A program made the translations under genes and the position numbers. 64,000 bases of DNA. Origin: an uncultured bacterium. GTDB taxonomy: Bacteria; Zixibacteria; MSB-5A5; CAIYYT01. The notes below the pieces were generated by a model. That model saw nothing but the letters and a program-made list of their open reading frames with translations. It searched no databases and had not been told where the DNA came from. Shown piece by piece: positions 58,933 to 63,507 of this stretch; the first letter of the stretch is position 1; each line of letters opens with the position of its first letter. Location: contig CAVSCK010000003.1 of assembly GCA_963726455.1 (NCBI GenBank), positions 160,001-224,000 of the forward strand, read 5' to 3'.

Positions 58933-58943
58933 AATGGCGTCCC
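58933..58943 (+). repeat. att core, left copy
   Basis: AATGGCGTCCC, identical to 63465-63475. Confidence 0.8.
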
Positions 58944-59202
58944 TTGTCACAGAGAATTGGAATCAAGTGGTTGCGGAGATAGTGGCGCTGTCGGACATAA
59001 CAAGAGAGGTTGCATGCTGTTAAGCGTGTTTCCGAATCGCTGTTCTTCCCGGACTTTTCCGAGCTACCAGTCTCTCCTGTCGTCTTTGCAGCCGTTTGTG
59101 CAGCTACGGATTAGCTGGCCAGACTACCTCCCCATTCCTACTGGCACCACTGAGTGTTACCTGGGACAGCAGTTTCGACTAAATGGGTGAAGCAGTTGGC
59201 AA

Positions 59203-59742
59203 ATGAACAGAAAGGCTGGCCGCAGGAATAAGTACGATACTCACGTCCTCCCTCGATTGGATGCCATTGTGCAGTGGCGAGCCAACGGACTCACGGAAGA
59301 GCAAGTCGCTGAGAATTTGGGAATTAGCTATCGGTCTCTCAATACTTACAAGCTTCAATTTCCGCAACTATTGCAAGCCCTAAACAGGGGCAAAGCCGAT
59401 GCAGACGCTCAGGTCGAAAATGCCCTGTTTAAGCGAGCTATCGGCTACGAGTACGAAACAACTGAGGCAAATCTATGCTTGGATCTCAACGGTCAACCTG
59501 AAGGCGGTCTTGTCACCAAGCGCAAAAACAAGCATGTTCCGCCACACGTGGGTGCGATAATATTCTATCTGAAGAACCGCTGCTCTCAGCACTGGTCGGA
59601 TCGTCTTACTCAAGAGTCGGCATCAAGATCGGAGCAGCCAGCCGCTCGGGTAGTTGTATATGTTCCTGCCACTGGGCGGGAAAGTCGCGAGACTGATTGC
59701 GAGGATGTCATAATCCGGCCCTCAGAGCTACACGGGGCTTAG
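59203..59742 (+). CDS. Phage terminase small subunit-like HTH protein
   Basis: GRRNKY, GLTEEQVAENLGIS, VENALFKRAIGYEY, KHVPP..GAIIFYLKNR...W.D. Confidence 0.7.
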   Translation: MNRKAGRRNKYDTHVLPRLDAIVQWRANGLTEEQVAENLGISYRSLNTYKLQFPQLLQALNRGKADADAQVENALFKRAIGYEYETTEANLCLDLNGQPEGGLVTKRKNKHVPPHVGAIIFYLKNRCSQHWSDRLTQESASRSEQPAARVVVYVPATGRESRETDCEDVIIRPSELHGA

Positions 59743-60710
59743 AAATCCCGGCTCCGCTCTTTTGCTCGCGAGGCCAAGTCGGCGTCCCTTTGCTCGGAGA
59801 TTGAATTCGACCACATAAACGCTAACGCGTAATCGCGAATAGAGAGGTATTTCAAGCCTCGGGTTGTGACGTCGCCGAACCAGACGTAGTCGTCGATGTA
59901 TGGATTTGGCTTCGTCGGTTCGCCGTATGCAGCGGTCATAGATGCCAGCATGTTCTTAAACGCTTGGAACGATTTGATCGTGAGAATGACCTGAAAGAGT
60001 TGGTCTTTGTAGAACCCCAGGAGACAGGTATCTATTTTGACGCCGCCTACGCTATCAATTTTCCCGAGATAAGTCAGGCAACCGTTGCCGTCATCCTCGA
60101 CTTTTTGTCCAACGAATGATATCTCGGCGCGAGTGCTACCCCAGGCGAAACCGCGAAAGCCATCCGCGATTTTGGGACCTGGCTGGGCGAACAGCCGCGC
60201 GGCACGCTTCACCGCTGCCGTAAAGTCCAACGAGATTGAGGGTCCAGCAGATACCTTAACATCGCCACTGGATCGATCGTACCACACACTTGAATAGGTG
60301 CTGTCCGCATCGAAGGAATAGATATAGGTTGCAGTCGCCCCAGAACCAATGGTTTTCGCTTCGGCATGGCCAAAGGACTGTCGCAGAGCGGCAAGAACGG
60401 CATCCTTCTGGCCTGGATCAACCAAATGGAATTCGAAGGACCAAAGCCCACCACCTTTGAAACTCAGTCGGCAGTCCCGGATCGCACATCCGGCGTATGT
60501 TCTGAGTGAACAAGGGTAAAACACAACTCCGCCGGGATATTCGGAAGGTTTTTCTCGCTGAGAAAGTTCAATGAATGAAACCGCACGAAAATCGGTCCCC
60601 CATGGGTAGCCAGCAAACCCGTTAATGAAACTGTAGTCGGCCGCGGTCGCTGGCACAAGCATTGACAGAAAAGTTAGAACTACTGCCGCGATTCTTCTTA
60701 TCATGGGCAA
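59739..60710 (-). CDS. Secreted protein with a duplicated domain
   Basis: AGGAGG RBS; signal peptide; NGFAGYPWGT and DGFRGFAWGS start two related halves. Confidence 0.75.
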   Translation of the reverse strand: MPMIRRIAAVVLTFLSMLVPATAADYSFINGFAGYPWGTDFRAVSFIELSQREKPSEYPGGVVFYPCSLRTYAGCAIRDCRLSFKGGGLWSFEFHLVDPGQKDAVLAALRQSFGHAEAKTIGSGATATYIYSFDADSTYSSVWYDRSSGDVKVSAGPSISLDFTAAVKRAARLFAQPGPKIADGFRGFAWGSTRAEISFVGQKVEDDGNGCLTYLGKIDSVGGVKIDTCLLGFYKDQLFQVILTIKSFQAFKNMLASMTAAYGEPTKPNPYIDDYVWFGDVTTRGLKYLSIRDYALAFMWSNSISEQRDADLASRAKERSRDF

Positions 60711-61706: not shown

Positions 61707-61811
61707 GTCACGGAAGCGCTCCGAGCCATAGCCCTTTGCGATATTTAGACGTTTGCTGAGAGCAGCGAGAGCGACTCGCACTCTTGGTCTCACGGTTATC
61801 GAGGCCAGAGT

Positions 61812-62003
61812 ATGCTATCCGCAGAACGATGCCGGCAAATTTTGAACCGGCCAGATTTATCAGATGCAGAGGTGGAATTGATCCGAGATAGGTTGAGCGA
61901 GATTGGCCAAATCTTAATCCGGCAATACGTGGAGACGTTTGGCCGTACGGATAAGCTTTCAGATGTTGATATTGACCAAGGTGGTTCGCATGAGCGAACG
62001 TAA
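61812..62003 (+). CDS. Small helical protein overlapping the recombinase start
   Basis: GAGG RBS; MLSAERCRQILN..DLSDAEVELIRD; overlaps ATG 61990. Confidence 0.65.
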   Translation: MLSAERCRQILNRPDLSDAEVELIRDRLSEIGQILIRQYVETFGRTDKLSDVDIDQGGSHERT

Positions 62004-63507
62004 GAATGCCGTCATCTATTCGCGAGTATCAACTAAAGAGCAGGCCATTGGTGGGTTCAGCCTTCAAAATCAAGAGAGAGAATGCAAGAGGTTCGCCGAA
62101 AATAGTGGATTCACAGTTCTTAAGTGCTTCCAAAATATCGAGGGGGAATCTGCGAAAACAACGAGAAGACCCGCGCTTATAGACATGCTGGAATATGTTG
62201 CCAAAAACAAGGGCCAGATCGACGCAGTAATCGTCTGGAAGTACGATCGTTTTTCGAGGAATGCCGGAGACGGCGGAATGCTATTAAATAACCTGGGTTT
62301 GCTCGGGATTGATGTCATATCCGCCACCGAACCCGCTGACATGACTGCCGCAGGCAAGTTCCTCAAGAACATTTTGTTGAGTGCGGCTCAATTTGATAAC
62401 GATGTCCGTTCAGAACGAACGGTAGGCGGAATGAGCCAAGCTGTAAGAGAGGGCCGTTGGCAGTGGCGAGCGCCGATTGGTTATCGGTACGATATGCAGA
62501 TTGACGGCAAAAAAGTCATTGTTCCGGATGCGCGAGCATCTTATGTGAAGAAGGCGTTTGCCCTTGCCGCAACTGGAAGCTATACCCAGATCGAAATCTG
62601 CCGAATGCTCCGTCGCGAAGGGGCAAAAATAAGTGCCCAAATGCTTAATCGAATGCTAAGAAACTATGTATATGCGGGGTATATTCTCAAGAAAGAATGG
62701 CATCCTGAACCGGTGAAGGGAATCCATGAGCCACTTATCTCATTGGATATGTTTCAACGTGTCCAGCGCATCCTGCTCAAGAATAGACCCGGCTATCGGC
62801 CCAGAATCCAAAATGATCCGGATTTCCCACTTCGCAACTTTGTGACTTGCTCTTGCTCCGGCCAACGTATCACTGGCAGCCGTTCTACCGGCAGACAGAA
62901 GGTCCGATACGCTTACTATCATTGCAGACAAGGTAAGTGCGGATTTGGCTCGGTTCCCCAACAAGAATTGCATCGACAGTTTTCCGAATTGCTTAGGTCA
63001 ATTCAGCCGGAGCCCGGCACGGTTGACCTCTTCCGTGAAATTATGCGAGAAACATGGCAAGAGAAACACAGGGATATCACGCAGGAGAAACGACGGGTTC
63101 AGACTGAGATCAATGGGATCGAGGAATACCGCGACAATGCCCTTCAGCTGTTCATTAAGGGAAAAATTACCGACCAAGAGTATCAGAAGGCCACTGGCTC
63201 TATAGCTTTGCGTGTAGAGGTTCTCAAGGAGGAATTAGCCAGCCTCCGCGCGGATGGACCGAACTTGCAGGGAGCGCTGCAATATTGCTGCGACAAGCTC
63301 ACAGATATAGCGGATACATGGATGTCCGGAGGCATTGAAGTGAAGCAGCGGTTTCAATCGCTGATCTTCCCGAATGGAATCACTCACGATGGTCGATCAT
63401 TTGAAACCGCCCAGACTGCCATAATTTTCAAGGTGTTACAGGAGTTTTCAGGCGAAAAATCAAGAATGGCGTCCCCAACGGGATTCGAACCCGTGTTATC
63501 GCCGTGA
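61990..63507 (+). CDS. Large serine recombinase
   Basis: YSRVST catalytic serine, DRFSRN, APIGY, HEPLIS, zinc ribbon Cys residues, coiled coil; last codons run antisense through tRNA-Glu. Confidence 0.95.
   Translation: MSERKNAVIYSRVSTKEQAIGGFSLQNQERECKRFAENSGFTVLKCFQNIEGESAKTTRRPALIDMLEYVAKNKGQIDAVIVWKYDRFSRNAGDGGMLLNNLGLLGIDVISATEPADMTAAGKFLKNILLSAAQFDNDVRSERTVGGMSQAVREGRWQWRAPIGYRYDMQIDGKKVIVPDARASYVKKAFALAATGSYTQIEICRMLRREGAKISAQMLNRMLRNYVYAGYILKKEWHPEPVKGIHEPLISLDMFQRVQRILLKNRPGYRPRIQNDPDFPLRNFVTCSCSGQRITGSRSTGRQKVRYAYYHCRQGKCGFGSVPQQELHRQFSELLRSIQPEPGTVDLFREIMRETWQEKHRDITQEKRRVQTEINGIEEYRDNALQLFIKGKITDQEYQKATGSIALRVEVLKEELASLRADGPNLQGALQYCCDKLTDIADTWMSGGIEVKQRFQSLIFPNGITHDGRSFETAQTAIIFKVLQEFSGEKSRMASPTGFEPVLSP
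63465..63475 (+). repeat. att core, right copy (tRNA-Glu 3' end)
   Basis: AATGGCGTCCC, identical to 58933-58943. Confidence 0.8.

Follow-up and report, generated by a model that had tools for sequence, protein, structure and literature searches.

In several described systems, the attachment site of an integrative element lies within, or over, one of the element's own genes. In Mx8, attP is found inside the integrase gene, and integration gives this gene a new 3′ end and the enzyme changed properties (IntP/IntX; PMC6070905). In the mycobacteriophages that show integration-dependent immunity, attP is located in the repressor gene and attB over the 3′ end of a tRNA gene (PMC9262239). In the ssrA islands of Dehalococcoides, the recombinase gene dsiB always overlaps the att site, with no stop codon ahead of it; McMurdie et al. 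(2011) speculated that DsiB is fully functional only on the circle or beside a tandem island, and judged the overlapping part to be divergent and probably non-functional (PMC3146451). Here we describe a comparable layout in a stretch of 64,000 nucleotides from an uncultured bacterium of the Zixibacteria (GenBank contig CAVSCK010000003.1, positions 160,001 to 224,000), referred to below as the window. A small element, very probably integrated in the 3′ end of a tRNA-Glu gene, encodes a large serine recombinase (LSR) whose gene contains the attachment site, and integration replaces the last residues of the enzyme.

The window recombinase shares with DsiB the overlap between its gene and the att site, a likeness of layout, and five loci of the family to which it belongs target the transfer-messenger RNA (tmRNA) gene, as the Dehalococcoides islands do. 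The target in the window is tRNA-Glu instead of ssrA, and homologues of a DsiA-like second serine recombinase, ParB, RecF or Mom were not found among the open reading frames (ORFs) of the 4.5-kb element. Beyond the att overlap, the element does not correspond to the six-gene module described for those islands. Moreover, in contrast to the published account of DsiB, a conserved helix at the end of the circle-form protein and a mimic of the tRNA T-loop are shown in the present family. As in Mx8, the att site is within the integrase's own gene and the C-terminus is altered on integration, but the Mx8 integrase is a tyrosine recombinase, whereas the window enzyme is an LSR, with a different chemistry, short att sites and control of direction by a coiled coil. 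The window recombinase works like Mx8 IntP and is not a member of that type. The likeness to mycobacteriophage immunity is that integration removes a C-terminal element and that a separate directionality factor is not evident; in that system, unlike the window, the split gene encodes the repressor, the integrase is of the tyrosine type and the part removed is an ssrA-like tag. The tRNA-overlapping attB sites of mycobacteriophages are likewise described for tyrosine integrases (PMC9262239).

Among the LSRs, A118/LI, Bxb1, phiC31 and SPbeta SprA match the window enzyme in domain order and, to judge from the model of its homologue P0003, in fold, and their zinc-ribbon motif is also 5 bp nearer the centre in attB. 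Unlike in the window, attP lies outside the integrase gene in these systems, and most of their targets are protein-coding genes. To our knowledge, no model phage-type large serine integrase changes its own C-terminus on integration. Serine recombinases acting at a tRNA 3′ end are described in the phiRSM filamentous phages, where the core is a 13-nt sequence in tRNA-Ser, and among the tycheposons, where 27 of 937 tycheposon-type elements carry an LSR (PMC3816273; bioRxiv 10.1101/2020.12.28.424599). The phiRSM Int differs from the window enzyme in being small and resolvase-like, with attP between genes, while the tycheposon LSRs use the tRNA 3′ end as the window enzyme does; a C-terminal swap is described in neither case. 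In the literature covered, which left subscription journals largely aside, the conserved circle-form helix, the T-loop mimic and the LSR clade are not described beyond McMurdie et al. (2011).

Integration exchanges the C-terminus of the recombinase

The recombinase frame is open from a TTG at 61939 and ends at a stop at 63505-63507 (the positions of the features are collected in Table 1). The protein contains serine recombinase domains only, namely a Resolvase domain (PF00239, E 1.9e-28, residues 24-174), a Recombinase domain (PF07508, E 1.7e-8) and a zinc ribbon (Zn_ribbon_recom, PF13408) that stays below the threshold, with 22.6 bits against a cut-off of 25.3. In an alignment of 12 sequences, R29, V30, S31 and Q35, which provide the serine nucleophile motif, are invariant, as are C304, C329 and C334. 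The PHROG match is the integrase family phrog_95 (E 7.9e-78), and the best resemblance in NCBIfam, far under the cut-off, is to CcrB. These domains and the model of the homologue P0003 discussed below show the arrangement of an LSR, in which the Recombinase domain is followed by a zinc ribbon with an inserted coiled coil.

The sequence AATGGCGTCCC is an 11-bp exact repeat that has exactly two copies in the window, at a spacing of 4532 bp. The right copy spans the last 9 bases of tRNA-Glu, CCA end included, and 2 flanking bases. A first-pass annotation, made from the sequence alone, had placed this att core inside the recombinase ORF, and it was correct in every detail of the repeat and ORF coordinates and of the two peptide endings that it read. 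The integrated gene continues from the core antisense through tRNA-Glu, and its protein ends in ...SRMASPTGFEPVLSP. From the left copy, the recombinase's frame reads MASLVTENWNQVVAEIVALSDITREVACC and then reaches a stop at 59021-59023; joining of the repeats, on a circle or at a tandem junction, gives this longer in-frame ending, as had also been claimed. Because the core is identical at both ends, a crossover anywhere within it keeps the frame. The attP core lies in the integrase ORF, so integration alters the C-terminus: insertion at the tRNA end necessarily swaps the C-terminal helix of the recombinase for 13 tRNA-dictated residues, and an excised circle or a tandem neighbour would restore the 29-residue ending.

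Taken alone, the 11-bp repeat is unremarkable. When up to one mismatch is allowed, shuffled sequences hold 1.23 matches on average, and two or more matches were found in 35 of 100 shuffles. Its weight comes from the positions of the copies and from what follows them, not from recurrence. The right flank is common to three same-genus genomes, in which homology begins at 63459-63462 and the tRNA-Glu is 100% identical to that of the window. Directly ahead of the tRNA-Glu 3′ end, all three genomes read ...AAAAAATGGCGTCCCC, which agrees with the left junction of the window, TTAAAATGG, and not with the right junction, CAAGAATGG. This agreement is expected if the left flank is derived from attB. At the level of single bases, the 2 bases ahead of the attL core are AA and match the sequence that precedes the tRNA end in the same genus, unlike those at the attR copy. 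The GC content is about 0.50 within the element, compared with about 0.56 in the flanks. The recombinase is present as a single copy in the source genome, and a search of 60 related genomes found no close recombinase, just two distant LSRs (29-35% identity); the occurrence of the element among relatives is sporadic. We are therefore highly confident of the anatomy, in which positions 58933-63475 are a small integrative element of 4,532 bp in the tRNA-Glu 3′ end.

The left border of the element is followed outward by a gene for an SRAP (SOS-response-associated peptidase) protein at 58130-58801 on the plus strand (E 1.3e-75). This flank is not beside tRNA-Glu in the three same-genus genomes. In the same-genus genome G003, tRNA-Glu is found at the ends of two contigs (the end of C253 and the start of C13), and several genomes of the same family carry partial tRNA-Glu copies consisting of the 3′ 43-53 nt, many of them at contig ends (as in G015, G013 and G008). 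The partial copies suggest other islands or population variation at tRNA-Glu.

The circle-form ending in a family of recombinases

Of 8000 candidates scored in a protein search, 1528 had E<=1e-3, and the best 120 (34-68% identity) were inspected. A peptide read antisense from the T-loop, always in one frame (..G-[FILVM]-E-P.. or E-F-E-S), is present within the last 45 residues of 109 of these 120 homologues; three others (P0003, P0016 and P0022) have a longer tail that resembles the left-junction peptide of the window, and eight have other endings. The loci of 168 members were fetched (80 genomic, 8 viral and 80 metagenomic), and a plus-strand recombinase match was found in 160. An opposite-strand tRNA, identified by ARAGORN, lies over the end of the ORF in 112 of the 160 loci. 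Its identity is Glu in 64, Asn in 10, Ala in 10, Arg in 8, Ser in 5, Met, Lys and Leu in 4 each, and Gly, Phe and Gln in 1 each. Among the first 80 loci, 23 lack a tRNA at this place, and five of those have a tmRNA gene at the ORF end. The hosts named in the records include Omnitrophota, Acidobacteriota, Actinomycetota, Bacteroidota, Pseudomonadota, Cyanobacteriota/Melainabacteria, Planctomycetota, Verrucomicrobiota, Zixibacteria and several groups of the candidate phyla radiation. On a quick maximum-likelihood tree of 97 recombinases, from which partial or frameshifted ORFs of less than 430 aa and exact duplicates were left out, no fewer than 26 changes of the tRNA label are required, against a possible minimum of 9. 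Many switches of the tRNA target have left the layout intact. The elements that could be bounded measure 4.0-9.5 kb. In these sequences, an att site in the recombinase's own gene is the rule in a large, barely described LSR family.

In the tmRNA loci (L077, L084, L085, L105 and L109), the ORF runs antisense into the tmRNA 3′ end, an arrangement that can be compared with the Dehalococcoides ssrA islands. Several other loci (L053, L055, L067, L106 and L183) have between two and four tail-like segments ahead of a single recombinase. L157 has a full-length recombinase (1676-3208) and, 8.6 kb further downstream, a second LSR gene (11846-13090), which makes a tandem junction a more probable source of its contiguous form than a free circle. 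The loci with multiple tails and L157 have the appearance of elements stacked at one tRNA, in tandem or in decay, with joints that restore the long ending.

The proposal that the circle-form ending is kept in relatives was borne out in three ways. The left-junction peptide of the window gives a gap-free alignment with the C-terminal 29 residues of P0003, a recombinase 52% identical to that of the window, with 12 of 29 residues identical and 20 of 29 positive (E 8e-9, as a single comparison). In nine loci of the genome set, at least 10 nt of the tRNA 3′ end are directly repeated ahead of the recombinase gene. Translated from the repeat onward in the recombinase frame, eight of them (L040, L046, L051, L055, L069, L075, L087 and L106) give x-[W/S]-[N/K]-x and then an amphipathic stretch, the exception being L043. 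Finally, a tail profile was built from 13 tails, iterated and run over the 168 loci. At E<1e-3 it had 38 matches in the 37,699 peptides of the plus strand; the 39,971 of the minus strand gave none, their best E value being 2.3. At E<0.01, 40 matches were located upstream of the recombinase, two were contiguous with the ORF (L157 and L137) and none was downstream. A protein search with the tail region of P0003 returned P0003 itself and one weak match, and nothing more. A separate or overlapping gene was also considered for the tail and was rejected: there is no start of its own inside the element, the tail shares the frame of the core, and stops interrupt the other five.

The first-pass annotation had offered conservation of the tail's WNQ start as a test of the peptide. 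The motif is indeed conserved, but mostly at the level of DNA. The W-N codons, TGG AAC/T, are near-invariant at all three positions (entropy 0/0.45/0 and 0/0/1.02 bit in 21 tails), and with the preceding T they form TTGGAAC(C), one base off the antisense T-loop TTCGAACC. In the window, this T-loop mimic reads TTGGAATC and starts 24 nt from the core start at attL, versus 19 nt for the antisense T-loop at attR. The 5-bp offset, taken from the alignment of the two 8-mers, was found in 26 of 26 attL/attR pairs with a shared core of at least 8 nt; three other pairs, in which the core is 5-6 nt, were out of register and showed different offsets. In LSR sites, according to Rutherford et al. (2013), the zinc-ribbon motif occupies base pairs 11-19 of attB and 16-24 of attP, so that it is 5 bp closer to the centre in attB (PMC3783163). 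The window shows the same displacement toward the crossover in attB, and the T-loop mimic fits a candidate attP zinc-ribbon motif, to which the zinc ribbon would bind. From the motif positions, the crossover centre should fall inside the 11-bp core. DNA recognition accounts for most of the W-N motif, so that a functional peptide could not be deduced from the conservation of the motif alone; the evidence for the peptide is the helix behind it.

These features raise the alternative that the conserved ending is simply the P′ half-site of attP, into which the gene merely runs, so that the extra residues have no role as protein. The invariance of TGG AAC at every codon position and the T-loop mimic at the canonical 5-bp offset are in its favour. 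However, the conserved stretch extends 40-60 nt past the zinc-ribbon motif, further than an LSR half-site, and it has a coding signature there. At the codons +3, +7, +10 and +13 after W, a spacing of i, i+4, i+7 and i+10, the second position is nearly fixed as T (0-0.28 bit), whereas the first and third positions vary (1.6-1.9 bit). Such conservation of second positions only is the signature of conserved hydrophobic residues on one helix face. In 39 distinct tails, nucleotide identity per codon position is 0.33/0.58/0.28, and the mean pairwise BLOSUM62 score is +0.83 in frame 0 versus -1.14 and -0.96 in the other plus frames and -1.39 in shuffled sequences. Frame 0 is the only one open in all 39 tails, as stops occur in 11-33 of them in each of the other five frames. 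In 27 of 39 tails, the stop comes 15-21 residues after W, and the proportion of nonsynonymous differences was below that of synonymous ones (pN<pS) in 12 of 12 hand-picked related pairs, with a pooled pN/pS of 0.39. A role as DNA alone is thus unlikely, and the helix behind W-N has probably been kept by selection on the protein.

No T-loop mimic was conserved at the mirrored position of the P arm, inside the ORF, in 21 aligned sites compared by eye. The Melainabacteria-type elements L046, L051, L154 and L167 have a GC-rich hairpin in the P arm, within the recombinase ORF, and its position corresponds to that of the terminator-like hairpin found downstream of tRNA-Glu, in the B arm. These elements seem to mimic both arms of attB.

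AlphaFold2 was run on P0003, a natural full-length form, with an 80-row alignment, and the resulting model stands for the family and not for the window protein. It is a confident LSR, with a mean predicted local distance difference test (pLDDT) score of 89 and long paired helices at 341-388 and 394-419. The Foldseek matches include Bxb1 (9iu2, E 1.7e-18), a complex of an SPbeta-type serine integrase and its recombination directionality factor (9dxd, E 2.2e-18) and phiC31 (9rah). The core-coded residues sit past the zinc-ribbon domain, in a low-confidence linker (486-496), and this location may be the reason that a tRNA-dictated sequence is tolerated there.

What the two endings may do

We propose that the state of the DNA would set which form of the enzyme is made. 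The helix-bearing enzyme, made only when attP is intact, would be the form tuned for attP × attB integration. As the helix appears to be selected as protein and is made only with an intact attP, it most likely serves integration. The tRNA-tailed enzyme, made only from the integrated copy, would have an altered activity; most likely this form would be attenuated, or dependent on a cofactor (for example, a conserved small protein) for attL × attR recombination. We regard this account as the best explanation when taken as a whole, with its anatomy, constrained helix and altered isoform, and we lean slightly toward it. A functional difference of this kind between the two isoforms is, as a claim of its own, tentative. 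There is a precedent that makes a role of the extreme C-terminus in direction plausible by analogy: in the SPbeta integrase, F532, which is near the extreme C-terminus, has been cited as a residue that matters for directionality, and at the coiled-coil hinge it abuts the directionality factor's essential helix (PMC11722253). A more specific version, in which the swapped helix is a built-in directionality device, with the helix form carrying out attP × attB and the tRNA-tailed form attL × attR in the absence of a classical factor, we consider doubtful. If it were true, the P′ arm would be read twice, once as a zinc-ribbon site and once as the start of a peptide that controls the coiled coil.

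A number of observations weigh against the proposed switch or the evidence used for it. The exact empty site was not found, and the further left flank of the three same-genus genomes is unrelated to that of the window. A recognizable tail is present in just 22 of the 49 integrated loci that have at least 9 kb of upstream sequence. With its own tail left out, the profile ranks the window tail second of 123,958 six-frame genome peptides at E 0.47, and the E value of 3e-7 obtained for that tail with the profile that includes it is circular. This makes the window tail a divergent member, identified mainly by its match to P0003 and by its position. The tails used in the frame and entropy tests were chosen by a peptide profile, which favours frame 0, and the pairs picked for pN/pS were neither independent nor random. 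In the model of P0003, the tail helix (495-511) has low confidence, with pLDDT of 48, 63 and 36 per 10-residue block, in a prediction where tails are present in just 3 of the 80 alignment rows, and the tail shows no sign of docking on the monomer. The low confidence of the helix, like the failure of the leave-one-out profile to single out the window tail, also speaks for the reading of the ending as a DNA site. Lastly, the small protein encoded upstream of the recombinase could be an ordinary directionality factor, and the isoform switch would therefore be unnecessary.

Another explanation is that the circle-form tail or the tRNA-coded tail acts mainly as a degradation signal, in which case integration would change the half-life of the enzyme and not its chemistry. 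The last residue is Ala in 13 of the 39 distinct tails and A, V or I in 22, and there is a precedent in the ssrA-like tags of mycobacteriophage integration-dependent immunity (PMC9262239). A degron, on the other hand, needs few terminal residues, whereas the conserved helix is located 5-18 residues before the end and the last residues vary; the window's own tail ends in C-C. We judge such a stability switch to be quite improbable. That there is no element at these bounds, the repeat being due to chance and the ORF merely overlapping a tRNA gene, is disfavoured to the point of being barely credible: the frequency of the 11-mer in shuffles and the non-syntenic left flank, with no exact empty site in the same-genus genomes, would agree with it, but the repeat stands exactly at the tRNA end and is followed by an in-frame homologue of a relative's C-terminus, the same geometry is found in dozens of independent loci, the GC content drops and relatives lack the element.

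Insertion of large DNA into genomes is mainly the work of large serine integrases, and the control of their direction is a central question that structures are now answering. In a widespread natural LSR clade in which insertion changes the extreme C-terminus, the idea that the state of the DNA controls the enzyme can be put to a simple test. The clade also supplies integrases with predictable, universal targets, the 3′ ends of tRNAs. In its P′ arm, a T-loop-mimicking candidate binding site is at the same time coding sequence, and att site and gene are tightly overlaid. For annotation, this layout explains integrase genes that seem to have no proper stop and read into tRNA genes, as well as the orphan 'mini-ORFs' found at the joints of islands.

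Companion genes and cargo

Besides the recombinase gene, the element carries four genes (Table 1), two of which recur in related elements. Immediately ahead of the recombinase, 20 of 21 bounded elements have a gene of about 50 codons, as found by BLAST clustering. Its family pattern is MLSxxxCRxxL...[D/E]xE[I/V]ExIRDxLYxLAxVLV.., and the copy in the window was recognized by eye (MLSxxxCRxxL...IRDxL...). Homologues are present in L036, L040, L046, L055, L075, L076, L106, L125, L128, L136, L145, L147, L154, L167, L174, L176, L182 and L184. The small protein has no family in Pfam, PHROGs or NCBIfam, and below a threshold of 0.9 it resembles just unnamed atlas clusters; it is a candidate directionality factor or partner of the recombinase. 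The second recurrent gene, present in 15 of the 21 bounded elements, encodes a MerR-type protein of about 290 aa, with an N-terminal helix-turn-helix (HTH) and an unknown C-terminal alpha/beta part. The MerR_1 domain is weak in the window protein (E 5.4e-4) and clear in homologues (E values down to 3.4e-10). An AlphaFold2 model of the protein has a mean pLDDT of 80, and Foldseek gave just weak matches to MerR-type regulators, the best one being CvkR (E 4e-3).

Table 1. Features of the element and its att sites (positions in the window)
Feature	Position	Strand	Basis or remark
attL common core, AATGGCGTCCC	58933..58943	.	exact repeat of 63465-63475
Orphaned last 29 codons and stop (circle-form C-terminus)	58934..59023	+	starts inside core; translation and P0003 match
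T-loop mimic TTGGAATC in P′ arm, candidate attP zinc-ribbon motif	58957..58964	+	encodes W-N of the tail
Terminase small subunit homologue, cargo, 179 aa	59203..59742	+	phrog_309, E 1.7e-44
Protein of unknown family, cargo, 323 aa	59739..60710	-	ORF; signal-peptide-like N-terminus by eye
Conserved module gene 1, MerR-type HTH, 263 aa from ATG	60915..61706	+	ORF open from GTG 60753
Conserved module gene 2, small protein, 63 aa	61812..62003	+	overlaps recombinase start by 14 nt
LSR gene, integrated form	61990..63507	+	505 aa from ATG; last 13 codons antisense through tRNA-Glu
attR common core	63465..63475	.	inside recombinase ORF (codons R-M-A-S), covers tRNA 3′ end
tRNA-Glu(ttc), intact	63467..63544	-	ARAGORN; attB-derived B′ arm, antisense T-loop TTCGAACC at 63484-63491

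The remaining two genes are cargo. The 323-aa protein has no match in Pfam, PHROG or NCBIfam, and the terminase small subunit gene (terS) is not common to the other bounded elements. In the 4.5 kb there are no structural genes, and no replication gene was recognized. As a lead, the combination of an integrase and terS in 4.5 kb suggests a satellite that would borrow the packaging of a helper phage, and the element is probably a phage-satellite-like island.

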